A stretch of DNA of 43,809 bases from Candidatus Coprovivens sp. GTDB lineage: Bacteria; Bacillota_I; Bacilli_A; RF39; UBA660. Both the position numbers and the translations under genes were made by a program. Below the pieces are notes generated by a model that saw only the letters and a program-made list of their open reading frames with translations, had not been told where the DNA came from and did no database searches. Positions 1,791 through 42,778 of this stretch are shown here, piece after piece. Location: assembly GCA_045654965.1 (NCBI GenBank), contig JAZOOK010000155.1, positions 1-43,809 of the forward strand, given 5' to 3'. The stretch's first letter is position 1, and each line of letters starts with the position of its first letter.

Positions 1791-3746
1791 ATGGGTGTTA
1801 ATATGAGATTAATTAAGAAAACTATTAGATTATTTTGTGTAGTATGTATAATTGGTTTATTTGTAGTATTTGGTTTATATTTATACGCTTATTTTAGTCC
1901 TAAATTAGATATTAAAAATGCTAATCAATTTTATATTTATGATGATGATGAACAACTTGTATATCAAGGTTCTGGTAATAATGAATGGGTATCATTGGAT
2001 GATATATCTCCAGAGTTAATCAACGCAGTGTTGTCTACTGAAGATAAGAATTTTTATAAACATCATGGATTTGATTATTTAAGGATTATTAAAGCTATGT
2101 ATACTAATTTAAAGAGTGGATCTATAGTACAAGGAGCTTCTACAATAAGTCAGCAATATATTAAGAATATGTATTTAGATTTTGATAAGACTTGGGAAAG
2201 AAAGATAGAAGAAGCTTTTCTTACATTAAGATTAGAGGTTCATTATAGTAAAGATGAAATATTAGAAGGTTATTTGAATACTATTAATTTTGGTCAAGGT
2301 AATTATGGTATTGAAAACGCTAGTCAGTTTTATTTTAATAAAAGTGCTAAAGATTTAAATCTAGAAGAAGCAATAATACTAGCTGGTATACCTAAAGCTC
2401 CTAATAAATATAATCCTGTTACTAATTATGATGCTGCTATTGAGAGAGCTAAAGTTATTAGTAGTGTTATGTTAAATAATGAAACTATAGATAATAATAT
2501 TTATGATAAGTTGTTTATAAGTGATATAGAAATATATGGAAAAGATAATGAAAATGATTTAAATATGCTTATGTATTATCAAGATGCTGTTTATAAAGAA
2601 TTACATAGTTTAGGTAGTATTCCAGATTCTTTGATAGAATCTGGTGGTATTAAGATATATACTTCTTTAAATATGGAAGCTCAAACTATTATGGAGAAAA
2701 GCATTAAAGATAATATGACTAAGGAAGATATGCAAGTAGCTAGTATTATTATTAACCCCCATACAGGTGGTGTTATGGCTTTATCTGGTGGTGTTGATTA
2801 TAGTAAGAGTCAGTTTAATAGAGCTATTAGTTCTAAAAGACAAGTTGGTTCTAGTATGAAACCTTTTTTGTATTATGCTGCTTTAGAGAATGGTATGGTA
2901 TCTAGTTCTACTTTTTTATCTGAACCTACTACTTTTATGTTTTCTAATAATCAAAGTTATTCTCCAGCCAATTACAATAATAAGTATGGGAATAAGAATA
3001 TTACTATGGCAGCAGCATTGGCCTATTCTGACAATATTTATGCAGTTAAGACTCATTTGTTCTTGGGAGAAGAAACTCTTGTTAATACGGCTAAAAGAAT
3101 GGGAATAGAGGGTAATTTAGAACCAGTTCCTTCTTTAGCTTTAGGTACATCTGAATTAAGTATGTTAGATTTTGCTAGAGGCTATACTACCTTGGCTAGT
3201 GGTGGTTATAAAAGAGATATTACTTTTATTGATAGAGTTGAAGATATGAATGGTAATATTTTATATAAAAAGTCTTTAAAAGATGAATTGGTACTTAACG
3301 AATCTTATACTTATATTTTAAATGAAATTATGACTTCTACTTATAACAGCGCTTTTGTTGATTATAATAGTCCTACTATTATTAGTTTAGCGTCTAAGAT
3401 ATCAAGTAAATATGCTATGAAGACTGGTTCTACTGGTACAGATTGTTGGATGGTAGGTTATGATTCTAATGTACTTATGTTAACTTGGAATGGATATGAT
3501 GATAATAAAGAGATGGAGGTTAAAGATGGAAGTATTTCTAAAAATATATGGGTAGATACTATTGAAAATATTAATGTAGAAAAGAAATGGTTTGATTTAC
3601 CTAATAATGTAGTTGGTATACCATTAGATGCAATAACTGGTAAAGAAACTAATGATACTAAAAAGACTACCATTTTTTATTATATAAATGGTAGTGAATA
3701 TAATAATCAAGATACTGAATTTGTATTTAAAGAAAAAGACGACTAA
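1791..3746 (+). CDS. Class A penicillin-binding protein (transglycosylase + transpeptidase), PbpG/YwhE-like; start may be 1803
   Basis: N-terminal TM; GT51 motifs EDKNFYKHHGFD, GASTISQQYIKN, RKIEE; transpeptidase motifs SSMK, SDN, KTG. Confidence 0.92.
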   Translation: MGVNMRLIKKTIRLFCVVCIIGLFVVFGLYLYAYFSPKLDIKNANQFYIYDDDEQLVYQGSGNNEWVSLDDISPELINAVLSTEDKNFYKHHGFDYLRIIKAMYTNLKSGSIVQGASTISQQYIKNMYLDFDKTWERKIEEAFLTLRLEVHYSKDEILEGYLNTINFGQGNYGIENASQFYFNKSAKDLNLEEAIILAGIPKAPNKYNPVTNYDAAIERAKVISSVMLNNETIDNNIYDKLFISDIEIYGKDNENDLNMLMYYQDAVYKELHSLGSIPDSLIESGGIKIYTSLNMEAQTIMEKSIKDNMTKEDMQVASIIINPHTGGVMALSGGVDYSKSQFNRAISSKRQVGSSMKPFLYYAALENGMVSSSTFLSEPTTFMFSNNQSYSPANYNNKYGNKNITMAAALAYSDNIYAVKTHLFLGEETLVNTAKRMGIEGNLEPVPSLALGTSELSMLDFARGYTTLASGGYKRDITFIDRVEDMNGNILYKKSLKDELVLNESYTYILNEIMTSTYNSAFVDYNSPTIISLASKISSKYAMKTGSTGTDCWMVGYDSNVLMLTWNGYDDNKEMEVKDGSISKNIWVDTIENINVEKKWFDLPNNVVGIPLDAITGKETNDTKKTTIFYYINGSEYNNQDTEFVFKEKDD

Positions 3747-3760
3747 GATTAGTCGTCTTT
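3735..3760. terminator. Probable bidirectional terminator formed by the last codons of the convergent pbp and noc genes
   Basis: Perfect 12-bp inverted repeat AAAGACGACTAA-ga-TTAGTCGTCTTT. Confidence 0.75.
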
Positions 3761-5251
3761 ATGTATTCTCATAGTTATTTGATAATTGCTATCAAAATCA
3801 ATTTCTTCTACGTCAATATAGAAACCACTTGCTCCTAATCCTTCAATACAAGAACGAATAGTAGCGATAGCATCTTTTAATTCCATTCCAGATACTTTTT
3901 TAGATGTTGATGTGTTGATTAAATCATCTACTGCCATCATAGGATCTACGTCATTATTCAGTTTAGTTTCCAATAAAGGAATATTTGTATTATCTTGGAT
4001 TGGTGTAAAGAATTTATTATGTGAATTAATTTCAATATCGTTGATGTTATTAAAATTATTCATTGGTTCCATTGGTTGTGCTGGAGTTGGTTTATTTTCA
4101 ACTATTGGAGCAGATATTCCGAAATCATTAATAAATTCTGATTTACTTGGTTCAGCATCAAATACTTCTAGACTTCCATTATTTGTAGTCATATTAGATG
4201 TTGGATTAAAGAAATCTTTTGCTGAAGCCATTGGTTCATTTGCTGGCAACGGATCTACACTGAAGAATTTATTATCGTTAGGTGTATCAAAAGTATCAAA
4301 ATTTTCAGTTGGATAAATTGTACTTGATGAGTTTGGAGTTGCTATATTAAACTCCGGAATAGTTGTTGCTGTCGTAAAAGTATCTTCTGATATAGGAGTG
4401 TTAAACGGAGATGGTTGTATTTCTCTTGTTTCCTCGATATCTAATGGTTCAACAGTCTTTGTTGGTTCTTCTAATACTTCTAATTCTTCTAGTACATCAA
4501 CAGATTGTTGATTATTTGTTTGAGTTCCCAGTCTATTAGCTTCTCTAAAGTCCATAGCGTTAGCTTTAATATCTTCTATACTTGGTATTGCTGATACTAA
4601 AGGTACATCTCCACCTTCATCAGATTCTGATACTGGTGTTTCTTCTACTGGTTTTAATTTTTTTAATTCTATATCTAATTGTCTTACAGTTAATCTTTCA
4701 TTGATTACTCTATGTAGCCATTCTCTTTGAGCGGCTTTATCATTTAGAGATAATAATGTTCTAGCATGTCTTTCAGAAATTCTTTCTTCTAAAAGTGCTT
4801 GTTGAACTTCTTCATCTAAGTTAAGTAGTCTTAATTTATTAGCGATAGCTGGTTGAGAAAGCCCCATACGTTTAGCTAGTTGTTCTTGAGTTAAATAACC
4901 TTTATCAAGTAAGTTCTTATATGAACGAGCTTCTTCGATAGCAGTTAAATCTCTTCTTTGAACATTTTCTACTAATGCTACTTCTGCAGATTTGTTATCA
5001 TCTATATTAGCAATAACTGCTGGTACTGTTGTTAATCCTACTAATTGAGCAGCTTTATAACGACGTTCACCAGCTATTATTTCATATTTTTCTCCTAGTT
5101 TTCTTAATACAAGGGGTTGAATTATACCGTGTTCTCTAATTGAGTCTGCTAATTCTTTTAATCCTTGTTCATCAAAATTTAATCTTGGTTGAAATCTATT
5201 TGGTATTATATCCTCTATATGTACTTGTAGTACTCCTGATTCTAAATTCAT
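3749..5251 (-). CDS. noc: Nucleoid occlusion protein Noc (ParB-family CTPase) with a long low-complexity insert
   Basis: PNRFQPR, IIAGERR, ENVQR motifs; HTH SQPAIANKLRLL...SERHAR with Q133/K139/N144/R161 (Noc QKKR-type); C-terminus resembles the Noc dimerisation domain; follows rsmG as in B. subtilis. Confidence 0.85.
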   Translation of the reverse strand: MNLESGVLQVHIEDIIPNRFQPRLNFDEQGLKELADSIREHGIIQPLVLRKLGEKYEIIAGERRYKAAQLVGLTTVPAVIANIDDNKSAEVALVENVQRRDLTAIEEARSYKNLLDKGYLTQEQLAKRMGLSQPAIANKLRLLNLDEEVQQALLEERISERHARTLLSLNDKAAQREWLHRVINERLTVRQLDIELKKLKPVEETPVSESDEGGDVPLVSAIPSIEDIKANAMDFREANRLGTQTNNQQSVDVLEELEVLEEPTKTVEPLDIEETREIQPSPFNTPISEDTFTTATTIPEFNIATPNSSSTIYPTENFDTFDTPNDNKFFSVDPLPANEPMASAKDFFNPTSNMTTNNGSLEVFDAEPSKSEFINDFGISAPIVENKPTPAQPMEPMNNFNNINDIEINSHNKFFTPIQDNTNIPLLETKLNNDVDPMMAVDDLINTSTSKKVSGMELKDAIATIRSCIEGLGASGFYIDVEEIDFDSNYQITMRIHKDD

Positions 5252-5289
5252 CTTAATCAGCCCCTTTTATCTAGTCTTTCCTATTATTA

Positions 5290-6017: not shown

Positions 6018-7878
6018 CTTTACCATATTCCTTTTTTAAGTATACAGATAGTATTGAGATATCTGCTGGATTTACCCCACTTATACGAATAGCTTGTGCT
6101 ATTGTAGTTGGTCTTACTTCTTTAAGTTTTTGTCTAGCTTCTGAAGCTATGTTATTAACTTTATCATAATCAATATCTTCTGGTATTTGTTTCTTTTCTA
6201 GTTTTAACATTTTTTCTGCTTCCTTATATGCTTTTTCGATATATCCTTCATATTTTAAGTTAATTTCTACTTGTTCTTGGATATCTATACTATAAGGAAT
6301 TTCTATTTGTGATCTTAAGAATTCCATATTAAGTTCTGGTCTTTTTACTAGTTGTTCTAGACTTAAAGATGCAGTTGGAACTTGATAGTTATTTGATTCA
6401 AAAGCAGTTCTAACTTCTGGAGTTATTTTTAACTTAGTTTGTTTCATATATTCTAGAAGCGCTGCTATTTCTTCTTCTTTTTTATTTAATCTGTTTATTT
6501 GTTCTTCTGAGATTAGTCCTACTTCATAACCTTTTCTTCTTAAACGTAGGTCTGCATTGTCACTACGTAATAAAAGTCTAAATTCGGCACGACTTGTTAA
6601 TAATCTATATGGATCTCTAATACCTTTTGTAATTAAATCATCAATTAATACACCGATATATGCATCAGATCTTTTAAGAACTAGAGGTTCTTTGCCTTCT
6701 AATTTTAGACATGCATTTATTCCGGCCATTAAGCCTTGGCATGCGGCTTCTTCATATCCACTTGTACCGTTTATTTGACCTGCAGTGAATAGATTTTTCA
6801 TTATTTTTGTTTCTAAACTTGCATTTAATTGTGTTGGGTATATAGCATCGTATTCAATTGCATATCCGTATTTTAAAATTTTGGCATTTTCAAAACCTGG
6901 TAAGCTGTGTACCATTTTTTCTTGTACTTCAGGAGGCATTGATGTTGAGAAGCCCTGTAGATACATATCATCGTAGTAACGACTTTCTGGTTCAATAAAT
7001 AGTTGGTGTTTTTCTTTATCAGAGAATCTAACTACTTTATCTTCTATTGAAGGACAGTATCTTGGACCTATTCCTTCTATGTCGTCTAACGCTCCGTACA
7101 TACTTGATTTATTTAGATTGTCTCTTATTATTTGATGAGTTTCTGGCGTTGTATATGTTAAGAAACAAGGTTCTTGTTCTTCTATTTTATAACAAGGATC
7201 CAAGTCGTAACTAAAAGTATAGTATTTGTTGTCTCCTGGTTCTAGTTTTGTTTTAGAAAAATCAATTGATTTTCTATCTATTCTTTGAGGAGTTCCTGTT
7301 TTTAGTCTAATTACTTTAAATCCATATTCTTTTAATTTATCACTTAAGAAATTTGAAGGTCTTTCATCATGAGGTCCTTTTCTTGTACGAGTATTTCCCA
7401 CAAGTATATCAGCTTTTAGGTAAGTACCAGTAGTAAGAATAACAATTTCAGATTCTATTTTAGTACCATCTTCTAATATTATTCCTTTTACTTGTTGATT
7501 ATCCACAATTAAATCTTCTACCATGCCTTCTTGAATAGTTAAATTTTCTAATGAATATAATGTATCTAACATTTCTTTAGGATATGTTACTTTATCTCCT
7601 TGAGCTCTTAATGATTGAACTGCTGGTCCTTTAGCACTATTTAACATCTTTATTTGTAGATGTGTTTTATCTGCTATTTTACCCATTATTCCACCAAGTG
7701 CATCTATTTCTCTAACTACTATACCTTTAGCACTTCCACCGATATGTGGATTACATGGCATGTCTGCTATATTTTTTATGTTACTTGTCATTAATAAAGT
7801 TTTATGACCTTTAGTGGCACATGCATATGCAGCTTCGCATCCTGCGTGACCTCCACCTACTACTATTATTTCATACAT
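6010..7878 (-). CDS. mnmG: tRNA uridine-5-carboxymethylaminomethyl modification enzyme (GidA)
   Basis: VVGGGHAGCEAA, MPCNP, GPRYCPSIEDK, AGQINGTSGYEEAA motifs. Confidence 0.97.
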   Translation of the reverse strand: MYEIIVVGGGHAGCEAAYACATKGHKTLLMTSNIKNIADMPCNPHIGGSAKGIVVREIDALGGIMGKIADKTHLQIKMLNSAKGPAVQSLRAQGDKVTYPKEMLDTLYSLENLTIQEGMVEDLIVDNQQVKGIILEDGTKIESEIVILTTGTYLKADILVGNTRTRKGPHDERPSNFLSDKLKEYGFKVIRLKTGTPQRIDRKSIDFSKTKLEPGDNKYYTFSYDLDPCYKIEEQEPCFLTYTTPETHQIIRDNLNKSSMYGALDDIEGIGPRYCPSIEDKVVRFSDKEKHQLFIEPESRYYDDMYLQGFSTSMPPEVQEKMVHSLPGFENAKILKYGYAIEYDAIYPTQLNASLETKIMKNLFTAGQINGTSGYEEAACQGLMAGINACLKLEGKEPLVLKRSDAYIGVLIDDLITKGIRDPYRLLTSRAEFRLLLRSDNADLRLRRKGYEVGLISEEQINRLNKKEEEIAALLEYMKQTKLKITPEVRTAFESNNYQVPTASLSLEQLVKRPELNMEFLRSQIEIPYSIDIQEQVEINLKYEGYIEKAYKEAEKMLKLEKKQIPEDIDYDKVNNIASEARQKLKEVRPTTIAQAIRISGVNPADISILSVYLKKEYGKDE

Positions 7879-7896
7879 AGTTATCAACACTCTCTT

Positions 7897-9261
7897 CTAT
7901 TTCCCAAGACAGAATCTACTAAACATTTCGTCTAATAATTCTTCTTCATATGTAGTACCATTTATAGTACCAAGTTTCTCCCAAATATCTTTTATATCTA
8001 GTTCTATCATGTCTATTGGTTGATTATTTCCCAAGCCTAATTCTACTTCATTTATAGATTCTAAGCATGATTCTAAAATACTTATACTTCTAGCATTACT
8101 TAGGTATGTAGGATCAGTTGTTTCTATTTGGGAAATATTAAACAATTCTACTATTTTTGCCTTTAATTCGTCGATTCCTTGATTATTTAAGATAGACATA
8201 TTTATAACATTAGACTTATCAACAGGAATACCTTCTAAATCTAATTTTCTTTCTAAATCATTTTTATTAATTATTATTATATAGTTCTTTCCTTCTAGTT
8301 GATTTAATAATGTTCTTATATCGTCTGTTATAGGTTCATTATTATTCAATACAAACAATACTAGGTCGGATTCATTCATCATTTTTATACTTTTTTCTAC
8401 ACCGATTGCTTCAATTTTATCGTCAGTTTCTCTAATACCAGCTGTATCTATCATATTTAGTAGAATTCCGTTAATACTTATTTGGCCTTCTACTATATCT
8501 CTTGTAGTTCCAGCAATATCGGTTACTATAGCTTTATCTTCTTCTAATAATGCATTTAATAAGCTACTCTTCCCTACATTTGGTTTTCCTATTATTGATG
8601 TTTTTATACCATCTTTAATAATACGTCCGTTTCTTGATTCGTTAAGTATTTTTACTATTTTATTCTTTAATTTAGTTATTTTAGGTATTAATACTTCATC
8701 TGTCATTATTTCTACATCGTCATATACTGGATAATCAATGTTTACATTTATATTAGATATTATGTGAACCATATCATCTCTTAATTCATTGATAAGTCCA
8801 GAAACTTTACCAGTGATTTGATTAACTGCTAATTCTCTTTGTGTATTTGTTTTAGCGTTTATCATATCCATTACTGCTTCTGCTTCTAGTAGATCTATTC
8901 TACCATTTAAGAATGCTCTTTTAGTGAATTCTCCTGGTTCGGCAAGTCTACATCCGCTAGTTAGTAGTAATTCTAATACTTTATTTGTTGGTGCTATTCC
9001 ACCATGAGTATTTATTTCTACTGTATCTTCTGCAGTAAAAGTACGAGGAGCTAGCATTACAGATACTAATACTTCATCTATAACATTTCCCGACTTATCA
9101 ACAATCTTACCGTAATTTATCGTATGAGTAGATACTTCTTTTAGATTATTTCCTTTAAATATTTTTGCTACGATATCAACAGCTTCTTCACCACTAACTC
9201 GTATTATTGAGATAGCACCTACACCTTGGCTAGTTGCTATAGCGCATATAGTATCGTTCAT
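7897..9261 (-). CDS. mnmE: tRNA modification GTPase (TrmE)
   Basis: DTICAIAT, GKPNVGKSSLLN, GTTRD, DTAG, C-terminal FCLGK; AAGGAG RBS fits ATG at 9261. Confidence 0.97.
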   Translation of the reverse strand: MNDTICAIATSQGVGAISIIRVSGEEAVDIVAKIFKGNNLKEVSTHTINYGKIVDKSGNVIDEVLVSVMLAPRTFTAEDTVEINTHGGIAPTNKVLELLLTSGCRLAEPGEFTKRAFLNGRIDLLEAEAVMDMINAKTNTQRELAVNQITGKVSGLINELRDDMVHIISNINVNIDYPVYDDVEIMTDEVLIPKITKLKNKIVKILNESRNGRIIKDGIKTSIIGKPNVGKSSLLNALLEEDKAIVTDIAGTTRDIVEGQISINGILLNMIDTAGIRETDDKIEAIGVEKSIKMMNESDLVLFVLNNNEPITDDIRTLLNQLEGKNYIIIINKNDLERKLDLEGIPVDKSNVINMSILNNQGIDELKAKIVELFNISQIETTDPTYLSNARSISILESCLESINEVELGLGNNQPIDMIELDIKDIWEKLGTINGTTYEEELLDEMFSRFCLGK

Positions 9262-9284
9262 TGCCTTCACTCCTTTTGGCTCGT

Positions 9285-9340
9285 ATTATAGCACAAATTC
9301 CCTACTTGGGAAATATTTTTATTCTATGTATATTATACCA
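9285..9340 (-). promoter_or_regulatory. Two tandem extended -10 promoters for the mnmE operon
   Basis: TGcTATAAT (9285-9293) and TGgTATAAT (9332-9340) on the minus strand. Confidence 0.6.
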
Positions 9341-9365
9341 AAATTATTTCCCGGGAAATAATTTT
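9340..9365. promoter_or_regulatory. Noc-binding site (NBS), perfect palindrome
   Basis: AAAATTATTTCCCGGGAAATAATTTT contains the B. subtilis NBS consensus ATTTCCCGGGAAAT. Confidence 0.85.
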
Positions 9366-14523: not shown

Positions 14524-14574
14524 TATTTTGGGGTTATAAGATTGGTAAATTTTGGAAAGAAGGAGGTTTTGTGC

Positions 14575-15030
14575 ATGGATTCATATGAAATTAATAAGGA
14601 AACGGTTGCATTAATTCCAAAAGATGAAAATACTACTATTGTTTATGAAGTGGATAACTCTTTTGTTATCAACAAACCTACATTAAAAATAGTGGAAGAA
14701 AGTTGTGAGTACTTTGGTAGTTCATTAGAAGGGAGACAGATAGGAACATCTAATTTAGTTGGTTTTACTCATAAAGTTCCAGTTATAATAGAAGAAAGTT
14801 TCAATTTAATATTTTTTCCTACTGCATCACCTAAGAACGAAGAATGTACATGGTTGGCTTATGAACATATTTTTAAACCAGATAGCTTTAAAGATAAGAC
14901 AATTTTAGAGTTAAAAAATGGTAAAAAAATAATAGTAAATGTTTCAACTCCGATCATTCATAATCAACTTTATAGATGCTCTAGATTAAAAGAATCTTTA
15001 ATGATGAGAAAAATTAACAAAAATGACTAA
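14575..15030 (+). CDS. comK: ComK-family competence transcription factor
   Basis: SYEINKETVALIP, KIVEESCEYFGSSLEGR, HKVPVII, FFPTASP..ECTWL, NGKKI..NQLYR match B. subtilis ComK as recalled (SYEVN, SCRFFGSSYAGR, HKPPI, FPT, CGWI, NQVYR); AGGAGG RBS. Confidence 0.88.
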   Translation: MDSYEINKETVALIPKDENTTIVYEVDNSFVINKPTLKIVEESCEYFGSSLEGRQIGTSNLVGFTHKVPVIIEESFNLIFFPTASPKNEECTWLAYEHIFKPDSFKDKTILELKNGKKIIVNVSTPIIHNQLYRCSRLKESLMMRKINKND

Positions 15031-20751: not shown

Positions 20752-20767
20752 AGTTTCACGTGGAACT
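20752..20767. promoter_or_regulatory. parS site 1
   Basis: AGTTTCACGTGGAACT versus consensus TGTTNCACGTGAAACA. Confidence 0.85.
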
Positions 20768-20958
20768 TATCAAAATAGTACTTAATTTCCTTGATTTTTG
20801 AAGTACAAAACAGGCTTCAAGGCCCGGAAATTAGGCAAAAATCTTAAATTTTAAATAAAAATAATAGGAATTGAGATACGAATCGACGATATGTTGGTCA
20901 TCTCAATTCTTTTTATATGCATAATTTTTTTTATTAAAAAATAAGTTGTGGAAAACTA

Positions 20959-20974
20959 TGTTTCACGTGGAACA
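20959..20974. promoter_or_regulatory. parS site 2
   Basis: TGTTTCACGTGGAACA, perfect consensus on the reverse strand. Confidence 0.92.
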
Positions 20975-21035
20975 TTATATTTTATTTTTTGTCAACATCG
21001 AATAACATTATTTTTTATACTAGACACATATTTGA

Positions 21036-21051
21036 TGTTTCACGTGGAACT
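21036..21051. promoter_or_regulatory. parS site 3
   Basis: TGTTTCACGTGGAACT. Confidence 0.9.
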
Positions 21052-21199
21052 TTTTGTTTGTTGATAAATATATGGTTTGTTTTATAAAAAATCTTTATTG
21101 TTTTGATGGGGAAATAAAATGTTGATAGTTTTGACTAAATTATTTCCCAAGGTCAATTGTTATCTCTGGGAAATAAAGTAGTTTGTTTCTTTGTTAGAT

Positions 21200-21215
21200 T
21201 ATTTCCCGGAAAATA
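21200..21215. promoter_or_regulatory. Noc-binding site (1 mismatch) with flanking half-sites
   Basis: TATTTCCCGGAAAATA; half-sites at 21109, 21141 and 21168. Confidence 0.75.
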
Positions 21216-21232
21216 AAAGCTGTGAGTTTACA

Positions 21233-21248
21233 TGTTTCACGTGAAACC
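21233..21248. promoter_or_regulatory. parS site 4
   Basis: TGTTTCACGTGAAACC. Confidence 0.9.
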
Positions 21249-21261
21249 TTAATATTTGTTA

Positions 21262-21290
21262 TTGACTATAAATAATTAATTTGTTAATAT
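21262..21290 (+). promoter_or_regulatory. sigmaA promoter for the SRP RNA
   Basis: TTGACT-17bp-TAATAT with TG extension. Confidence 0.75.
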
Positions 21291-21296
21291 TAGTTC

Positions 21297-21367
21297 GTGC
21301 AACAAGTATATTGTAACCTGGTCAGGACCGGAAGGTAGCAGCCACATCAATCCCTATTTGTGTGCAC
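21297..21367 (+). ncRNA. ffs: Small signal recognition particle RNA (4.5S type)
   Basis: Domain IV TGGTCAGGACCGGAAGGTAGCAGCCA with GGAA tetraloop; closing stem GTGCA/TGCAC followed by a T run. Confidence 0.92.
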
Positions 21368-21386
21368 TTTTTTTATGGGTGATGTT

Positions 21387-21818
21387 ATGAATATAGATAA
21401 AAAAATACTAGATTTACTATTAAAAAATGCTGAAAAGGCTTATAAAAAGGGGGAAATTCCTGTTTCAGCAGTCATATTGGATCAAGACGGTAAACTTGTT
21501 AGTTCTGCATTTAATTCAAGACAAAAACAATATAATGTATTAGGACATGCAGAAATAAGTTGTATTTTAAAAGCTGAAAAGAAGCTTCGAGATTGGCGTT
21601 TAGATGGTTATTATATGATTGTTACTTTAGAGCCATGTAATATGTGTTCTATGATAATTAAAGAATCTAGATTAGATAAAGTTTATTATTTTTTACCTAA
21701 GAAAAGTGATAATGAGTCTTGGGAAATAAATATAGATAAAGAACAAATAGATAAATATGATGAATATTCGAAGAAATTTAAAGAATTATTAACAAATTTT
21801 TTCAATAATAAGAGGTGA
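21387..21818 (+). CDS. tadA: tRNA adenosine(34) deaminase family protein
   Basis: GEIPV, HAE, WRL, TLEPCNMC motifs; synteny with ffs and dnaX. Confidence 0.88.
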   Translation: MNIDKKILDLLLKNAEKAYKKGEIPVSAVILDQDGKLVSSAFNSRQKQYNVLGHAEISCILKAEKKLRDWRLDGYYMIVTLEPCNMCSMIIKESRLDKVYYFLPKKSDNESWEINIDKEQIDKYDEYSKKFKELLTNFFNNKR

Positions 21819-21832
21819 AAACCTCTTTTTTT
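21810..21832 (+). terminator. Intrinsic terminator after tadA
   Basis: AAGAGGT-gaa-ACCTCTT followed by a T run. Confidence 0.75.
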
Positions 21833-21833
21833 A

Positions 21834-21850
21834 TGTTATAATAATCCACA
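21834..21850 (+). promoter_or_regulatory. dnaX extended -10 promoter with a DnaA-box-like site at the start region
   Basis: TGtTATAAT at 21834-21842 overlapping TAATCCACA at 21842-21850. Confidence 0.55.
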
Positions 21851-21863
21851 GGAGGTTTTTGAT

Positions 21864-23591
21864 ATGAGCTATAAAGTTTTATATAGAAAATATAGACCTA
21901 ATGACTTTAATAATGTAGTAGGACAGGATTATACTGTTGAGATGCTGAAAAATGCTATAAGTACAGGCAAACATGCCCATGCTTATATATTTACTGGACC
22001 ACGTGGAACTGGTAAAACTAGTAGTGCCAAGATCTTTGCAAAGGCTTTAAATTGTGAAAATACGGTTGATGGGAATCCATGTAATGAATGTTCAGCTTGT
22101 TTAGCGTTCAAGGATAGTCCAGATATTATAGAAATAGATGCTGCTTCTAATAATGGTGTAGAGGAAATAAGGGAACTTATCAACAACGTGAAGTTAGTTC
22201 CATCTAATTTTAAGTATAAAGTATACATAATAGATGAAGTTCATATGCTTACAACTAGTGCATTTAATGCATTATTGCTTACTTTAGAGGAACCGCCATC
22301 GCATGTAGTATTTATTTTAGCTACTACAGATATCCAAGATGTACCTATTACTATACTTTCAAGATGTCAAAGATTTGATTTTAAGCCAGTAAATAAGACT
22401 GCTATAGTTAATCGTTTGAAGCATGTATGTACTGAGGAATCTATTAAGATTACTGATGATGCATTAGAGGAGATTGCTTTGATTTCAGCTGGAGGAATGC
22501 GTGATGCATTAGGAATGCTAGATCAATTAGCTAATGATGATAGTGAAATTACTATAGATATGGTTTCTGATTACTTTGGAAGTGTTTCTGTTAAGAAAAT
22601 TGATGAGTTATTAACAAGTATTGAAGAAAATAATGTAGATAATTTATTAGAAATACTTAAAGTAGTTAAGGAATCAGGTACTAATTATGCTGTATTTATA
22701 GAGAAGCTTATTTCTGAGTTAAGAAAGACTGCAATTGGAATTAAGTCTGGGAAATATAAGCATGATATGTATTTCGATGACATATATAGTATGATTTTTG
22801 ATTTGAATGAATGTTTATGTAATATAAATATTAATATTGATCCTTATGTACTTATTGAAATTGTATTGCTTAAGTATATAAATACGGGAAATAATTCTAG
22901 AGTAGGTTCGGGAAATAATTTTAGTACTTCTAGCAATGTTTCAGTTATTGAAGAAAAGGTAACAAAAAGTTCTACTAAATCTAATAAAAACAATGATGTT
23001 AATGGTACTGAAATAGCAGCGGGAAATAAAACAAACGCCGATACTAAGGGGTCCGAACCAACTACAAAGCCACTAGATAAAGATGTTGATAAAAAGAAAG
23101 TTATCCACAAGAAGAAAGCAAAAATAATAGATTTGAGTGCAAGAATAAATAATTGTTTTGTGGAATGTAGTAAGGATATTAAAGTTTCTTTTGCTAAGGA
23201 ATGGGGAAGTTTTATTAGTTCTTTACTTACTAAAGATAAGAGTTTGATGTCTATATTAGCTGATACTACAATTCTTGCTGCATCAAATACTTATGTTTTA
23301 CTTCAAAGTAAGATAAATAGTACTAATGAACTTATAAATAATTCTATAGATGATCTTGGGAAATATTTTGAAGATTATTCAGGAAATAAAGTTAAGTTTG
23401 CTGCTTTAACCGAAGAAATATGGCAAAAAGAGATGGAAAATTATAGAAATAATATTAAGAATGGAATAAAATATAATTATATAGAAGAAAAAGAGGAAAA
23501 ATCAGAGGAATCTAATGAAGATGTTGTTGTTGCGTCTGATAATATTGAGGATGTAGCAAAGGATATATTTGGTTCTTTTGAAGTTGAATAG
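21864..23591 (+). CDS. dnaX: DNA polymerase III gamma/tau
   Basis: LYRKYRP, GPRGTGKT, EIDAASN, IIDEVHML, SRCQ motifs. Confidence 0.97.
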   Translation: MSYKVLYRKYRPNDFNNVVGQDYTVEMLKNAISTGKHAHAYIFTGPRGTGKTSSAKIFAKALNCENTVDGNPCNECSACLAFKDSPDIIEIDAASNNGVEEIRELINNVKLVPSNFKYKVYIIDEVHMLTTSAFNALLLTLEEPPSHVVFILATTDIQDVPITILSRCQRFDFKPVNKTAIVNRLKHVCTEESIKITDDALEEIALISAGGMRDALGMLDQLANDDSEITIDMVSDYFGSVSVKKIDELLTSIEENNVDNLLEILKVVKESGTNYAVFIEKLISELRKTAIGIKSGKYKHDMYFDDIYSMIFDLNECLCNININIDPYVLIEIVLLKYINTGNNSRVGSGNNFSTSSNVSVIEEKVTKSSTKSNKNNDVNGTEIAAGNKTNADTKGSEPTTKPLDKDVDKKKVIHKKKAKIIDLSARINNCFVECSKDIKVSFAKEWGSFISSLLTKDKSLMSILADTTILAASNTYVLLQSKINSTNELINNSIDDLGKYFEDYSGNKVKFAALTEEIWQKEMENYRNNIKNGIKYNYIEEKEEKSEESNEDVVVASDNIEDVAKDIFGSFEVE

Positions 23592-23610
23592 AGAAAGAGG
23601 GAAATAAATT

Positions 23611-27633: not shown

Positions 27634-30600
27634 ATGGATTTCTTATCTAAATATTTTAATTATGAAAATGGTTTGACTATAAGTGGTTTAACAAAAGAGT
27701 TAAACATTTTTTTCGTGCTTGAAGTATTTAAAAGAGAGAATAAGAATATATTGATATTAGCTAATACTTTATATGAAGCTAATATGTATTATGATTCTTT
27801 AAAGACTTATACTGATGATGTATGTTTATTTCCTATGGATGATTTCTTAACTAGTGTTGCTGTTGCAATATCGCCTGATTTAAAGATAAAGAGATTAGAA
27901 ACGTTAGATACTATTAGAAGTGGTAAAAAAACGATTGTAGTAACTAATTTAATGGGTTATTTAAGGTATTTACCTAATAAGAATGATTCTAGTAATTTAG
28001 AGTATAACTTAAGTTTGGGAAATAATATTAAAAGAGATGAAATATTAGATATACTTGGGAAATATGGTTATGTAAGAGAAAGTATTGTTACTACTACAGG
28101 AGAATTTGCTGTACGTGGTTTTATTATAGATTTATTTATTATAGATGAAGAACATCCTATTAGAATAGAGTTTTTTGGTGATGAAGTAGATTCTATTAGA
28201 TACTTTGATGAATCTACACAATTATCTATTAAAGAAATAGATAGTATTAAGATAAAACCATATACTGAAGTAGAAAGTAATGATAATAGTAGTTTAGTAG
28301 ACTATATGAATGATCCTTGGGTGATGATGATTAATAGGGATCAGATTGAATTAGCTTATGAAAAGTTACTTAATGATATTACTGAATATAATGAAGCGGA
28401 AAATATTTCCCGTAAGCATATGTATGAGATGGATGAGATATCTTATAACAATGTAATGTACCTAAATAGTATAGGTGATACTGAGTTTGGGAAATATTTA
28501 AGTTTTAAGAGTCAAGAAATAGAAAACTTTAATAGTGACTTTGAATTACTTGGGAAATATTGTGAAAAGCAATTAATCGGTGGTAAGACAGTTGTTTTAT
28601 GTTTAAGTAGAGAAAGTCAATTAAAGAGTTTAATTCCTTTTTTACCTAGTTATAAAGTTGTGAAAAAGGGGGAGTTTATTCACAGGGAAATAAATATCTT
28701 ATACAAGAAGATAAATAGTGGGTTTGTATTTGAAGATTATGTAGTAATAGCTGAATCTGATATTGAAAAGATTAAGAATGCAGTTATTAATTATAAGAAC
28801 TCATACCATGTGGGGAAGAAGATTAAGGATTTTGGTCAACTTGCTGTAGGTGATTATGTAGTACATAGTGCTCATGGTATAGGTATTTATAATGGAGTTA
28901 TTACTTTAACTAAGAATGGCTTAAAGAAAGATTATATACAAATTAATTATTCGGGAAATGATAAGATTTATATTCCTGTAGAAAAGATTAGTACTATATT
29001 TAAATATGCTGGTAAAGAAGGTTCAATGCCTAAGTTAGATAAATTAAATAGTACTAGTTGGGTTAAGAAGAAGAGAGAATTACGCAGTAAGATTAAAGAT
29101 ATTAGTGGTGAACTAATTAAGTTATATGCTGCTCGTAGTAGTGTTAAAGGTACTCCGTTTAGAGATTATGCTGAAGAAGCAGTATTTGGTGGGGAATTTA
29201 TTTACAAAGAAACTATAGATCAATTAAAGGCTATAGAAGATATAGATAGAGATTTATCTAGTGAAGTACCTATGGATAGATTATTATGTGGGGATGTAGG
29301 ATTTGGTAAGACTGAAGTTGCTTTTAGAGCTATGTTTAAGACAATAGTTAATAATAAACAAGTATTCTATTTATGTCCGACTACAATACTTTCTAAGCAA
29401 CAATATGAGAATGCTGTAGAGAGATTTAAGAATTATCCAATAGAAATAGCATTACTTAATAGATTTACTTCTCCTAAGGAAACTAAACGTATTTTAGAAG
29501 GATTAGAGAAGGGGACTATTGATTTAGTGTTTGGTACACATCGATTATTGTCTCCAGATATTAAGTTTGCTAAATTAGGTCTTTTAATAGTTGATGAGGA
29601 ACAACGATTTGGTGTTACTCATAAAGAAAAGATAAAAGAATATAAGAATGATGTTAATGTACTTACATTAAGTGCAACTCCAATACCTAGAACACTTAAG
29701 ATGGCATTAAGTGGTTTAAGAGATTTATCTATAATAGATACTCCTCCTACTAATAGGTATCCAGTACAAACTTATGTTATTCAAGATAATGATTTAATAG
29801 TTAAAGATGCTATATATAAAGAGTTATCTAGAAATGGTCAGATATTTGTTTTATATAATAAGGTAGCTTCTATTGAGAGTAAGATGGAACAGTTACATAG
29901 ATTAGTTCCTGAAGCTAGAATAACTATTGCTCATGGTCAAATGAGTAAGAAAGAACTAGAAGATGTAATGGAAGCATTTATTAATCATGAATTTGACATA
30001 TTATTATGTACTACAATAATTGAGACTGGTATTGATATTAGTAATGCAAATACATTAATTATATATGATGCAGATTGTTTTGGTTTATCTCAGTTATATC
30101 AATTACGTGGACGTGTTGGTAGAAGTAATAGAATTGCTTATGCATATTTAATGTATGATAAGAGTAAGATGTTAAATGATATAGCAGTTAAGAGATTACA
30201 AGCTATCAAGGAATTTACTGAATTAGGTAGTGGTTATAGAATAGCTATGAGAGACTTATCAATACGTGGTGCAGGAGATTTACTAGGTTCAGAACAAGCT
30301 GGTTTCGTAGATACTGTTGGTATAGAGTTATATATGCAAATGATTGAAGAAGAAATGCGTCGTATGAAAGGTGAAGTAGTAGAAGAAGATGAAGAAGAAA
30401 CTACTACAAATAGATCATTAGTAGAAGTTGAAACACATATTAGTGATGATTATGTATCTGATGAAGATATTAAGATTGAGATTCATAAGAAGATTAATGA
30501 AATTGATGGATATAAGAAATTATTAGAAATTAAACATGAATTAGAAGATAGATTTGGTAAGATTAGTAAAACTATGGAAATCTATATGTTTGAAGAGTGG

Positions 30601-30925: not shown

Positions 30926-31441
30926 ATGGAGAGTCTTATGAATAATGTTAATTTTATAAAGAATATTGATAATCTTGGTAGAATAGTTATACCTATGGAT
31001 ATTAGACGTAAGTTACAGATAAGTACTGGTGATGTTCTTAGTATTACATGTAACGATAAAAGTATTATGTTAACCAAATATAGTAATTTAGATAGTAATA
31101 GTAAAGTAGTAGAGATGATTAAATATTTTGTAGATGATTTTAATATAAAAGTAATACTTACTAATAAAGAATGTGTATTATATTCTAATTTAGTTAATAT
31201 GGGAGCTATGTTAGATAGTAATACTAAGTTATTAGTAAAAAAAGGAAGTAATATAAAATATACTAGTAATACTGGATACTTTGGGGATAGAAAGATTGAA
31301 GGTATTTATAATATGTTACCTATAGTTACTAGTGAAGGTATAGAAGGAAGTATTATAGTTTTTGGTAGTGAAGAAGATAGATCTTATGAGATATGTATGT
31401 TACTTAGTAAGTTAATTATGTTAGAACTAAATATAACTTGA
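30926..31441 (+). CDS. spoVT: Stage V sporulation protein T (AbrB domain + GAF-like domain)
   Basis: IDNLGRIVIPMDIRRKL, LTKYS, PIV...GSIIVF; ~170 aa; follows mfd. Confidence 0.85.
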   Translation: MESLMNNVNFIKNIDNLGRIVIPMDIRRKLQISTGDVLSITCNDKSIMLTKYSNLDSNSKVVEMIKYFVDDFNIKVILTNKECVLYSNLVNMGAMLDSNTKLLVKKGSNIKYTSNTGYFGDRKIEGIYNMLPIVTSEGIEGSIIVFGSEEDRSYEICMLLSKLIMLELNIT

Positions 31442-31466: not shown

Positions 31467-31478
31467 AACTCTATATTT

Positions 31479-31672
31479 AGCAATGAAGGAAAGAGTACCT
31501 TTATCAAATATTATAGAGAGATTCTGGTTGGTGGAAAGAATTATAGAGGATATTGGGAACATGGCTCTGGAGTTAAAGCGTATATTTCGCGTTAAGAAAT
31601 AAAGTGTATGATAATTCATAAACTAAGGTGGTACCGCGGGTTTTTCTCGTCCTTAGATTATGAATTTTTTTT
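31479..31672 (+). ncRNA. T-box riboswitch, Met (AUG) specifier
   Basis: AGTA, AGAGAG and GGTGGAA stem I motifs; GAAC-ATG-G specifier at 31561-31563; T-box AAGGTGGTACCGCG at 31625-31638; metG downstream. Confidence 0.9.
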
Positions 31673-34390: not shown

Positions 34391-34477
34391 TTATTTCCCG
34401 GGAAATAATTTAGTTGTGGATAATTTTGTAAAAAATCACTTTATTTCCCAAGAATTACTGTAAAACGCGGGAAATAA
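34391..34477. promoter_or_regulatory. Perfect NBS, perfect DnaA box and two NBS half-sites
   Basis: TTATTTCCCGGGAAATAA at 34391-34408; TGTGGATAA at 34415-34423; TATTTCCC at 34442; GGGAAATA at 34469. Confidence 0.85.
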
Positions 34478-34526
34478 TCTAGTTTAATCAACATAGTGTT
34501 TGCTATAATTAAAGGAGGTGATTGAT

Positions 34527-35279
34527 ATGTTTACTGATACACATTGTCATTTATATAATGAATATTATGAAGAAGGTATAGATTCTATTTATGAAAAAAT
34601 GAAAGCTTCTAATATTACAAGAGTTATTAACAACGGATGCGATGGCAAGTCTAATAAAGAAGTCATTGAACTGCTTGGGAAATACGATTGGATGTATGGA
34701 ACGTTAGGTATTCATCCAGAAAGCGCAGATACTTATACTGAAGAAGATTTAAAATATGTAGAAGAACATATTAATGATCCTAAGGTTGTTGCTATTGGCG
34801 AGATAGGTTTAGATTATTATTGGACTAAAGATAATAAAGATAAACAAAAGGAATTATTTGAATATCAACTTAAGTTAGCTGAAAAGGTGAATAAGCCAGT
34901 AGTTATCCACAGTAGAGAAGCCACACAAGATACTATAGAGATACTTGGGAAATATAATGTAACTGGTGTTATACATAGTTTTAGTGGTAGTTATGAGACT
35001 GCTTGTATCTATATTAAGAAAGGATTCTTATTAGGTATTAATGGTGTTATTACGTTTAAGAATTGTAATTTAAAAGATGTAGTAGAGAAGTTAGACTTGG
35101 GAAATATTGTTTTAGAAACAGATTCTCCTTATTTAACACCTGTACCTTATAGGGGAAAGAGAAACGATCCTTCTCATGTTTGGGAAATAGCTGAGTATGT
35201 TGCTAATCTTAAACAAGTTAGTATAGAAGAATTGTCAAAGGAAACTAATGGTAATATATCTAGGTGTTTTGACATTTAG
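34527..35279 (+). CDS. tatD: TatD-family DNase
   Basis: DTHCHL, GIHP, GEIGLDY, IHSR, ETDSPY motifs; TGcTATAAT at 34501 upstream. Confidence 0.95.
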   Translation: MFTDTHCHLYNEYYEEGIDSIYEKMKASNITRVINNGCDGKSNKEVIELLGKYDWMYGTLGIHPESADTYTEEDLKYVEEHINDPKVVAIGEIGLDYYWTKDNKDKQKELFEYQLKLAEKVNKPVVIHSREATQDTIEILGKYNVTGVIHSFSGSYETACIYIKKGFLLGINGVITFKNCNLKDVVEKLDLGNIVLETDSPYLTPVPYRGKRNDPSHVWEIAEYVANLKQVSIEELSKETNGNISRCFDI

Positions 35280-41989: not shown

Positions 41990-42778
41990 ATGAATTTTAA
42001 AGTAGGAGATTATGTTACTAGAAGTAGTTATGATAATGATATAGTTTTTGTAATAGTTAATATAAAAGATAATATTGCTTTACTTAAAGGGGTTAATTTA
42101 AGATTGGTAGCAGATAGTCCTTTGAATGATTTGAATTTATGCAGTAAGGAAGAGAGGGAGGATGACTTTTTAGTTGATCTTAATTTAGATATAGATATTG
42201 AAACTGATAGAAGTGAGTCTGGGTATTTTTATTTACCACCTAAAATTCTTCATTTAGATGGTGATAGTGACTATTTAGATAAGTGTTTAGGTTTTTATAA
42301 AAAGAATAGAGTTATGGCTTATGGAAGGACTATTTCAGAAAAGGATTTAGAGAAGAAAGTTATTCCTTTACTTACTGATATTAAACCTGATATTTTGATT
42401 GTTACTGGTCATGATGCATATAATAAAAATAATAATGATGTACATGATATGAAGAATTATAAGAATTCTCTTAATTTTATTAAAGCAGTTAAGGAAGCAC
42501 GAAGGTATGAGAAAAGTCATGAGAAGTTAGTTATTATTGCTGGTGCTTGTCAAAGTAATTATGAAGAATTAATTAAGGCGGGTGCTGATTTTGCTAGCAG
42601 TCCTAAAAGAGTAAATATTCATGCTCTAGATCCAGCTATTATAGCAACTACGTTGTCATTAACTGAAAGAAATAAAGAGGTAGACTTAATAAAGTTATTA
42701 GAAAAGACAAAATATGGAAAAGATGGTATGGGCGGTCTTAAAGTTAATGGTTTAATGTATGTGGGGTATCCTAGATGA
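41990..42778 (+). CDS. yabG: Sporulation peptidase YabG
   Basis: GDYVTRSSY, LHLDGD, VTGHDA, AGACQS, FASSPKRVNIHALDP motifs. Confidence 0.95.
   Translation: MNFKVGDYVTRSSYDNDIVFVIVNIKDNIALLKGVNLRLVADSPLNDLNLCSKEEREDDFLVDLNLDIDIETDRSESGYFYLPPKILHLDGDSDYLDKCLGFYKKNRVMAYGRTISEKDLEKKVIPLLTDIKPDILIVTGHDAYNKNNNDVHDMKNYKNSLNFIKAVKEARRYEKSHEKLVIIAGACQSNYEELIKAGADFASSPKRVNIHALDPAIIATTLSLTERNKEVDLIKLLEKTKYGKDGMGGLKVNGLMYVGYPR

Follow-up and report, generated by a model that had tools for sequence, protein, structure and literature searches.

Noc is the textbook example of a cytidine triphosphate (CTP) switch in which DNA clamping is coupled to membrane binding through an N-terminal helix. This helix was present in all Noc homologues examined by Adams 2015 and required for function; it is further reported to be autoinhibited until CTP binds (Jalal 2021), to bind weakly and to be replaceable by an unrelated amphipathic helix (Adams 2015, Jalal 2021). 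The family is defined by Q-K-K-R at four specificity positions, with one lysine at 179 or 184 being sufficient (Jalal 2020). Characterised members have tens of Noc-binding sites (NBSs), which occupy either two-thirds or half of the chromosome on the origin side (Pang 2017, Adams 2015). In Staphylococcus aureus, 41 loci are reported, none farther than 700 kb from the origin on either side, and in Bacillus subtilis the sites extend over the origin-proximal two-thirds (Pang 2017). Here, we analyzed a noc-like gene (3749..5251, minus strand; 500 amino acids (aa) plus stop) located in a 43,809-nt stretch of DNA, hereafter called the window, from a Candidatus Coprovivens sp. genome (contig JAZOOK010000155.1 of GCA_045654965.1, a 1.79-Mb draft of 214 contigs with 90% completeness). 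As judged from its domains and phylogeny, the protein is a Noc by descent, yet three features of the characterised protein are missing: the N-terminal helix, a score above the curated family cut-off and scattered binding sites. It represents a large clade of gut Bacilli, uncultured and with small genomes, in whose Noc the short linker between the DNA-binding domain (DBD) and the C-terminal domain (CTD) has grown into an acidic tether predicted to be disordered.

Two Pfam domains, ParB_N at residues 8–98 (E = 1.4e-33) and HTH_ParB at residues 101–200 (E = 4.2e-33), were the only Pfam matches in the protein. Residues 1–100 (4952..5251, minus strand) form the ParB N-terminal CTPase domain without an N-terminal extension, carrying PNRFQPR (17–23), GERR (61–64) and ENVQRR (95–100), with a predicted local distance difference test score (pLDDT) of 79–91. 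The GERR and ENxQR boxes are intact, and G61–R64, E95, N96, Q98 and R99 are invariant in 106 sequences. Residues 101–200 (4652..4951, minus strand) form a helix-turn-helix (HTH) DBD with the NBS-type specificity residues Q133, K139, N144 and R161. At the other end of the protein, a Noc-type CTD, the putative dimerisation domain (residues 455–500; 3752..3889, minus strand), is predicted by AlphaFold2 as one helix plus two strands (pLDDT 82–90), and BLASTP aligns residues 451–499 with the CTD of a sister-family canonical Noc (E = 5e-5). These assignments agree with the initial annotation, made from the sequence alone, which had read residues 1–200 as a ParB CTPase plus HTH with the same four specificity residues, likened residues 455–500 to the Noc dimerisation domain and considered the protein to be of the Noc type.

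Comparison with the characterised Noc proteins of B. subtilis and Geobacillus thermoleovorans (TIGR04285; PDB 7NFU, 7NG0, 7OL9, 6Y93) revealed a shared CTPase domain, an NBS-type HTH with Q, K and R at three of the four positions, a Noc-type CTD, the lack of an LG[KR]GL motif, a gene position after rsmG and the same 16-bp NBS palindrome in the genome. The locus differs from them in having neither the N-terminal helix nor its spacer, in a 254-aa acidic disordered insert between DBD and CTD, and in an asparagine instead of a lysine at the fourth specificity position. In Caulobacter numbering, the NBS specificity feature (Q173, K179 and/or K184, R201) is represented by Q133, K139 and R161, with N144 at position 184. 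The same holds more widely: in a set comprising one protein per genus from 84 genera (zero loci dropped), Q-K-x-R was found in 81 and K184 was missing in all 84. The best NCBIfam model was likewise TIGR04285, with 278.9 bits in two stretches; the curated cut-off of 315 was missed owing to a break in the model match after position 199, and none of 13 other family members scored reached it. The best solved relatives were the Geobacillus Noc structures 7NG0/7NFU (E = 2.4e-57), aligned over residues 7–204 only and ranking ahead of Spo0J 6SDK.

The protein shares with Spo0J/ParB the fold and the CTP-clamp logic, and its NBSs cluster near the origin as parS sites do. It differs in its NBS-type residues, with Q133 and R161 rather than R173 and G201, in the lack of the ParA-binding peptide LG[KR]GL and in the CTD type. 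The Spo0J of this genome is encoded by a second ParB gene that is paired with soj on another contig; it possesses the N-terminal peptide LGKGLEQLF, R/G at the specificity positions and a Spo0J-type C-terminus. In a quick maximum-likelihood tree of 85 core domains, 25 Spo0J sequences formed one branch (Shimodaira–Hasegawa-like approximate likelihood-ratio test support 100) with all long forms outside, while 25 long forms and a short form of sister family f2 grouped in another (support 96) next to canonical Noc. An identity as Spo0J is excluded by the tree, the specificity residues, the missing ParA peptide and the separate soj-spo0J operon.

The insert (residues 201–454; 3890..4651, minus strand) consists to 58% of P, T, N, S, E and D, against 31% in the rest of the protein, and contains 46 D+E versus 13 K+R (net charge −33) and no W or C. 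It falls on the disordered side of the charge–hydropathy line. AlphaFold2, run on a 106-row alignment, placed residues 8–200 confidently and assigned pLDDT values below 50 to most of residues 203–454, with short helices only at 225–231, 235–241 and 437–445. The acidic, P/T/N/S/E/D-rich tract described in the initial annotation is thereby recovered, and disorder and structure prediction, which that annotation had proposed as a check, identify it as a probably disordered linker. Tandem repeats within the gene are limited to two trivial 9-bp repeats, so the insert is not a recent repeat expansion. A Protein Atlas search with the linker yielded no usable match.

Conservation in the linker is confined to short islands. 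Among 89 close homologues, the two N-terminal domains reached consensus fractions of 0.96 and 0.94 and the CTD 0.81, compared with 0.48 in the linker. The first island, GGDVPLVSAIPSIEDIKANAMD (residues 213–234; 4550..4615, minus strand), includes VPLV (216–219) and SIEDIKANAM (224–233) and overlaps the predicted helix at 225–231. It is followed by FTTATTIPEFNIATPNSSST (residues 292–311; 4319..4378, minus strand), defined by conservation in the 89 homologues, with the core TTATTIPEFNIATPNSS at 293–309. The first conserved NKFF motif lies in DNKFFS (residues 326–331; 4259..4276, minus strand; NKFF 327–330), where KF at 328–329 stands out. Further islands are EVFDA (362–366; 4154..4168, minus strand), with VFD at 363–365 standing out, and DVDPMMAVDDL (434–444; 3920..3952, minus strand), with DPMM at 436–439 standing out and a short predicted helix. 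Between these two is the second and best-conserved NKFF motif, NSHNKFFTP (409–417; 4001..4027, minus strand; NKFF 412–415), in which HNKFFT (411–416) stands out. The two NKFF motifs reach consensus fractions of 0.89–0.91. The initial annotation had listed recurrent NKFF, KDFF and NKFF motifs; all three are present and both NKFF copies are conserved, but KDFF (residues 345–348; 4208..4219, minus strand) is not conserved among the close homologues.

The long form is widespread in the clade. A search with residues 195–500 returned 133 proteins, nearly all of 460–580 aa, with identities down to 34% over the whole region; one of them is labelled Candidatus Coprovivens sp., a genus assigned to order RF39, family CAG-1000 by Gilroy 2021. 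Within the genus, the long form was found in 23 of 24 genomes, the exception being a 65%-complete genome. Using the first 200 residues as query, we detected a Noc-like match in 144 of the 151 sampled genomes, or 143 of the 150 genera, of the GTDB family, with an open frame of 323–793 aa in 143 of these 144; the remaining one, of 237 aa, is cut by a contig end. For comparison, the Spo0J frames of these genomes span ~295–304 aa, and Noc proteins in other families of the class 247–310 aa. In the 84-genus set, proteins of 322–789 aa contain linkers of 75–515 aa (median 188), all of them net acidic and 78 on the disordered side of the charge–hydropathy line. Draft status (214 contigs) could in principle raise the question of a gene fusion or frameshift. 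The architecture recurs without internal stops in 23 of 24 relatives from the genus and in 144 of 151 genomes from the family, and 133 database proteins match linker plus CTD; these findings make the probability of an assembly or gene-calling artefact negligible and for practical purposes rule it out. In two other genera (L026 and L032), linkers are composed of three to four tandem repeats of ~40 aa, for example containing MSEMGFGINNT or IDSGMFNLNTPPVS; such repeat-built linkers indicate that the linker can grow by repeat expansion.

At the N-terminus, PNRFQPR is preceded by 16 residues, versus about 24–35 in the helix-bearing canonical Noc proteins of relatives. The latter, read at 28 loci of sister families, mostly begin with an F-containing peptide followed by a spacer, such as MNIFSGNK, MGLFDFLGTK or MFNIFSRDD. 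By comparison, MNLE opens all 21 aligned close homologues, in one case after a doubtful 7-residue extension, and the longest possible N-terminus comprises 14–21 residues in most of the 84 genera, with the few longer ones resembling spurious upstream starts. A missed start is no explanation here: the open reading frame (ORF) is already the longest possible in frame and the end of rsmG, according to ORF reading, lies 58 nt upstream, so no upstream start can add a helix. A Shine–Dalgarno sequence, AAAGGGG (5261..5267, minus strand), was read 9 nt before the ATG. The absence of an N-terminal amphipathic helix and the start directly at the CTPase domain, both noted in the initial annotation, are thus upheld, including against the upstream start that it had named as a possible refutation. 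On the evidence of these alignments, roughly 10–30 N-terminal residues carrying the membrane-targeting helix of canonical Noc have been lost. Two further groups deserve mention. The Noc proteins of family f23 (L123, L130, L131, L134) score above the TIGR04285 cut-off and seemingly start at the CTPase domain without an F-rich N-terminal peptide. The only sampled member of a sister family in the same order (L038; G025:C29, 486–1226, plus strand) is a 247-aa Noc-like protein with neither N-terminal helix nor insert, a degenerate box I (SNRYKTR) and a very long tree branch.

To characterize the linkers across genera, we compared motif counts in the 84-genus set with 300 composition-preserving shuffles. 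The pattern [KR]F[FILVMY] occurred in 56 linkers versus 10.6 ± 3.0 in shuffles, and [KR]FF in 40 versus 1.9 ± 1.4. KFFN, NKFF, FFNF and FNFL were the top enriched 4-mers, with the consensus P-x-N-K-F-F-N-F-L-E-D-E-E; asparagine occupies position −1 of K-F-F in 29 of 46 windows and position +3 in 30 of 46. Motif variants lacking the lysine were found in three further genera, while several motif-negative genera contain other repeated F motifs (GMFNLN, GFGINN, NIFG), sometimes as tandem repeats. FF-containing motifs hence persist across genera within a variable linker, as became apparent from the orthologue alignment that had been recommended at the outset; the lack of motif conservation that the initial annotation had named as a further refutation thus does not apply. 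Two additional motifs were enriched: a helix motif, I-[DE]-x-I-K-x-x-A-x-D-I, in 48 genera (0.6 in shuffles) and D-[IL]-D-x-L-L-[KR], abbreviated DIDxLLK, in 20 (0.2 in shuffles), for example in L017, L022, L025, L066 and L072. In most genera the order is helix motif, DIDxLLK, KFF, and four have an extra upstream match to PPKFI[ND]Y. The protein studied here contains the helix motif, of which the island at residues 213–234 is the local copy (IEDIKANAMDF), and two NKFF motifs, without DIDxLLK. Comparison with L040 and L043 suggests that the island at residues 292–311 is possibly a diverged counterpart of the family FF motif.

Resemblances of these motifs to other proteins were also noted. DIDxLLK resembles the FtsZ C-terminal peptide, and the FtsZ of this genome ends in DFDDIPPFLRNRDDF. 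The K-F-F-N-F-L core resembles the canonical Noc N-termini of sister families as well as the FtsA C-terminus of this genome, VLGKLFGYIFNG, and the N-terminus of its SepF, MAFSIKDIFAKDEYDE, in which acidic residues come after a hydrophobic motif, just as they do in the linker. A motif-matrix scan of 2155 ORFs identified no convincing second carrier and none that was clear among division proteins. The one lead from it is a 491-aa bitopic membrane protein (L141; G000:C96, 1803–3278, minus strand) with an MSGGRFFNSLG start, ~370 aa of N/P/M/Q/G-rich low complexity and one transmembrane helix. It has seven weak homologues among the 24 genus genomes, with partly similar N-termini, some starting with KDFF-x-GAGFDE, and the short motif at its N-terminus may correspond to that of the Noc linker.

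To locate potential DNA targets, we searched for TATTTCCCGGGAAATA, which we take to be the canonical 16-mer NBS palindrome. The 1.79-Mb draft contains two perfect sites and one with a single mismatch, all within the 43.8-kb window and all intergenic: a perfect TATTTCCCGGGAAATA palindrome between mnmE and jag (9345..9360), the one-mismatch site between gyrA and tadA (21200..21215) and a second perfect palindrome between metG and tatD (34392..34407). The expectation from composition is ~5e-4. When up to three mismatches were permitted, five matches were found in the window versus 0.20 in window shuffles. NBSs with at most one mismatch were present in 91 of 100 other family genera at 1–23 copies, usually 1–7, with a reversed control giving 0 in 101 genomes. 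The five family genomes of highest contiguity contain 23 sites with at most two mismatches, every one of them within about 30 kb of noc. Among 21 draft genomes with listed coordinates for both noc and NBSs (G253 left out), 33 of 60 sites are on the contig of noc, each within 25 kb, and 27 on other contigs. Outside the family, any 16-mer match was found in 18 of 111 class genomes. Closed genomes encoding a short Noc contained two to eight 14-mer sites per genome, spread over 0.6–2.9 Mb in four of them; the fifth had none.

These data bear on the alternative nucleoid-occlusion mechanism that the initial annotation had put forward. Its basis in a Noc-type protein stands, but a B. subtilis-style scatter of sites over the chromosome does not, as the sites are few and within about 30 kb of noc/oriC. 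With so few NBSs near noc/oriC, the origin region is a more likely target of the protein than the nucleoid as a whole. The functions that the initial annotation had suggested for the insert, namely membrane or partner contacts, condensate-like multivalency or an enlarged clamp lumen, are hypothetical. Locally, sites can be dense. One genome has a tandem array of at least 12 perfect NBSs with a period of ~79 bp and one gap of ~158 bp (G253:C1:89139–90103), and another has 11 copies, nine perfect and two with one mismatch, within 2.5 kb (G077:C1:204165–206711); both arrays are 15–17 kb from noc. In two other genera, an NBS is situated <0.3 kb upstream of noc.

Half-sites add a second layer in the genus studied here. 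The NBS half-site 8-mer GGGAAATA/TATTTCCC occurs 35 times in the window (1184–37759), versus 1.70 ± 1.29 in shuffles, and 52 times in the remaining 1.75 Mb, which is about the composition expectation. Thirty-one of the 35 are isolated, with the opposite side matching the NBS at a mean of 2.5 of 8 positions against about 2.2 by base composition, that is, at chance level. Half-sites cluster beside NBSs. An 8-mer scan delineated clusters around the NBS at 9345 (7392..9360), at 21109..23606 with the split site ATTTCCC-N19-GGGAAAT at 21142–21174, inside mfd (28017..28692, six half-sites) and at 34392..35189 with a split site at 34443–34475 and four half-sites inside tatD. The two split NBSs share the 19-bp spacer, each is next to a full or near-full NBS, and they are the only such pairs in the genome for spacers of 1–40 bp. 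Of the half-sites, 23 are inside genes, 21 of these with GGGAAATA on the coding strand; they occur in all three reading frames and therefore represent a DNA-level feature. Their leading-strand orientation bias may partly follow GC skew. Contig C205 contains eight more half-sites within 1.5 kb and, since it carries the rest of argS, seems to adjoin the left end of the window. In a second species of the genus, the 60 kb surrounding noc contain 31 half-sites, versus three in 140 kb on one flank and none in 40 kb on the other. Half-site arrays were thus seen in both genomes of this genus that were examined and absent in all seven other genera examined.

The gyrA-tadA intergenic region (20752–21248) additionally contains four parS-like sites interleaved with the NBS-like site and half-sites, and may constitute a composite centromere region. 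Of the four, one is perfect, two deviate at a single position and one at two positions; no better parS was found elsewhere in the draft genome. A search of full-text literature, with supplements outside its scope, returned no description of origin-confined NBS clusters, NBS half-site arrays or a long-linker Noc, the last of which may or may not be included in the Noc alignments of the Adams 2015 supplement.

Combining architecture, motifs and binding sites, we consider it about an even call that the protein is a CTP-dependent clamp loaded near the origin in which the linker FF motif has replaced the lost membrane-targeting helix. Dimers would load at origin-proximal NBSs and close with CTP into clamps, whose DNA compartment would be bounded by two long flexible linkers and which would spread locally. 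The K-F-F(-N-F-L) motifs, present here in two conserved copies, would take over the role of the N-terminal helix as weak multivalent contacts with the membrane or a membrane protein, effective only when many clamps accumulate. In this way, the origin region, not the whole nucleoid, would be anchored to the membrane and kept away from the divisome. The ~35 half-sites around oriC in this genus may contribute low-affinity contacts for single DBDs. RacA of B. subtilis is a DNA-binding protein with an origin-proximal motif that tethers origins to the membrane or pole via an amphipathic helix or a partner. RicO of S. aureus is another such protein, reported to bind an origin-proximal motif and to tether the origin to the membrane or pole by an amphipathic helix or a partner (bioRxiv 10.64898/2026.03.06.710092). 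Both serve as a working analogy only: their folds are unrelated, they are not CTP clamps and membrane binding is hypothetical in the present case.

Several observations weigh against this replacement of the helix by the FF motif. The f23 Noc proteins seem helix-less yet have no insert, and 23 of the 84 genera lack the motif even under a widened pattern ([KR][FY][FILVMY] or [NL]FFN). In the protein studied here, a proline follows both FF motifs (NKFFSVDP, NKFFTP), where AlphaFold2 shows no helix; the helical hydrophobic moments of the motifs are unremarkable (0.03–0.46), and their strongly acidic context is unfavourable on anionic membranes. As a discriminator the moment is uninformative, as it separated the motifs neither from background nor from known N-terminal helices. 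The conserved asparagines around K-F-F look less typical of a generic amphipathic helix than of specific recognition by a protein. Since the genera are related and do not represent independent samples, the shuffle statistics exaggerate how often the motif was independently retained, and the counts show retention rather than a number of independent events. A complex prediction of the N-terminal domain plus DBD (residues 1–205) with linker segment 290–335 gave a score of 0.00 and counts neither way. Finally, a 675-aa Noc from family f24 (L139; G372:C11, 471–2498, minus strand) combines the N-terminal peptide MALFNRKDK and a full canonical core with a ~400-aa acidic C-terminal tail that contains NSFLFEDEDDE and ends in GFWNLFK; five NBSs are on its contig. 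It resembles the proteins of our clade in the long extension, which is acidic, of low complexity and carries an F-rich acidic motif, and in the clustering of NBSs on the contig of noc, and differs in that the extension follows the CTD instead of preceding it and the helix is retained. By this comparison, the combination of clustered NBSs and an acidic tail bearing an F-acidic motif has arisen at least twice, in different positions. Helix and acidic-tail motif coexist in this protein, and the motif therefore need not replace the helix, which keeps partner binding in play.

According to that alternative, which we regard as possible though on the unlikely side, NKFF, the I-D-x-I-K helix and DIDxLLK are docking peptides, instead of lipid-binding elements, for a protein partner of the divisome, pole or replication machinery, such as FtsA, SepF, DivIVA or DnaN, that the origin-loaded clamps would recruit or sequester. 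The sharply conserved polar positions flanking K-F-F, the acidic, proline-flanked context without an AlphaFold2 helix, a fixed motif order (M1–M2–M3) typical of modular disordered-region scaffolds and the resemblance of DIDxLLK to the FtsZ C-terminal peptide all speak for docking, as do the FF-bearing bitopic membrane protein, the f24 Noc with both helix and motif and the species-specific contacts that Noc orthologues are reported to need (Pang 2017). The partner is nevertheless purely hypothetical, DIDxLLK is missing from the very protein studied here, the proteome scan revealed no clear second carrier among division proteins, and the membrane-protein lead has only seven weak homologues behind it. 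A physical or regulatory role of the linker without a dedicated membrane or partner site appears improbable. It could act as an acidic entropic spacer that enlarges the clamp lumen, allows the two DBDs to span separated half-sites or repels non-specific DNA, or its phenylalanines could be 'stickers' that promote cohesive clustering. Such a role would suit the uniform acidity of linkers varying from 75 to 515 aa, the other repeated F motifs of motif-negative genera, the two split NBSs with equal spacers and about 31 isolated half-sites in the window, and the drift of the linker while the N-terminal domain and DBD are almost invariant. However, a pure spacer has no need of motifs kept across dozens of genera far above shuffles, and the half-site arrays of this genus are absent from the seven other genera although those have long linkers as well.

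More improbable still is that the protein has left the Noc role and become a CTP-dependent sliding-clamp regulator of origin-proximal promoters or replication initiation in the manner of KorB from plasmid RK2. The intergenic location of the three good NBSs, one of them upstream of the mnmE-mnmG-rsmG-noc string, and the noc-upstream NBSs of two other genera would fit such regulation. S. aureus Noc is reported to restrain initiation (Pang 2017), and KorB is described as a precedent for clamp silencing at a distance. KorB, which has disordered regions and a partner that locks the clamp, is also comparable as a ParB-family clamp with regions outside the core for partner contacts and a non-segregation function, but it is a plasmid protein with other DNA sites and another domain order, and a KorA-like partner would be hypothetical here. 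A promoter role here is purely hypothetical, most half-sites are inside genes (23 of 35), and the conserved hydrophobic linker motifs would be left unexplained.

A broader and tentative proposal is that Noc in this clade no longer serves as an occlusion factor for the whole chromosome and has become a second organiser of the origin, comparable to a centromere, with linkers that bridge half-sites and display a transposed membrane- or partner-binding peptide, NKFFNFLEDE. The few NBSs would load CTP clamps beside oriC, joined in this genus by dozens of origin-confined half-sites; the long acidic linkers would let the two DBDs of a dimer work semi-independently and bridge half-sites, and the origin domain would be fastened either to the membrane or to a protein of the divisome or cell pole. 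Across 143 of 150 sampled genera, the helix appears to have been dropped, a disordered motif-bearing tether placed inside the clamp and the NBSs collapsed onto the origin. The architecture is therefore more general than the single-sequence observation that led to it; its identity and layout we state as findings, the role of the motifs as our interpretation. Should the FF motif bind membrane, evolution would be able to shift the anchor, together with the proposed CTP-gated autoinhibition; should its target be a protein, the motif would represent the specific contact of Noc with the division or replication machinery that has long been sought. The clade further offers a natural experiment on the lumen size of ParB-type clamps, the roles of disordered linkers in the ParB family and origin–membrane tethering in gut Bacilli that have reduced genomes and in which MinD went undetected; here, no MinD match exceeded the cut-off in the 90%-complete genome. 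Long-linker Noc is thus of clear interest to the ParB/Noc field.

The window as a whole represents the origin region, with the gene order argS, class A penicillin-binding protein (PBP), noc-like gene, rsmG, mnmG, mnmE, jag, yidC, rnpA, dnaA, dnaN, comK, recF, gyrB, gyrA onward, which places the noc-like gene downstream of mnmE-mnmG-rsmG. A ComK-family gene (14542–15030; Pfam E = 5e-43) occupies an unusual position between dnaN and recF. The class A PBP (1791–3746), a homologue of the YabG sporulation peptidase (41990–42778) and an AbrB/SpoVT-type gene (30926–31441) suggest a walled, possibly spore-forming organism despite the small genome. A 134-aa ORF (3912–4316, plus strand) on the strand opposite the linker region is hydrophobic and of low complexity and most likely a shadow of the noc frame. 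Two RNA elements were also detected: a small signal recognition particle RNA (21293–21373; Rfam 57.1 bits) just upstream of tadA and a T-box leader (31474–31657; 117.9 bits) before the HAD hydrolase-dUTPase-metG gene string.

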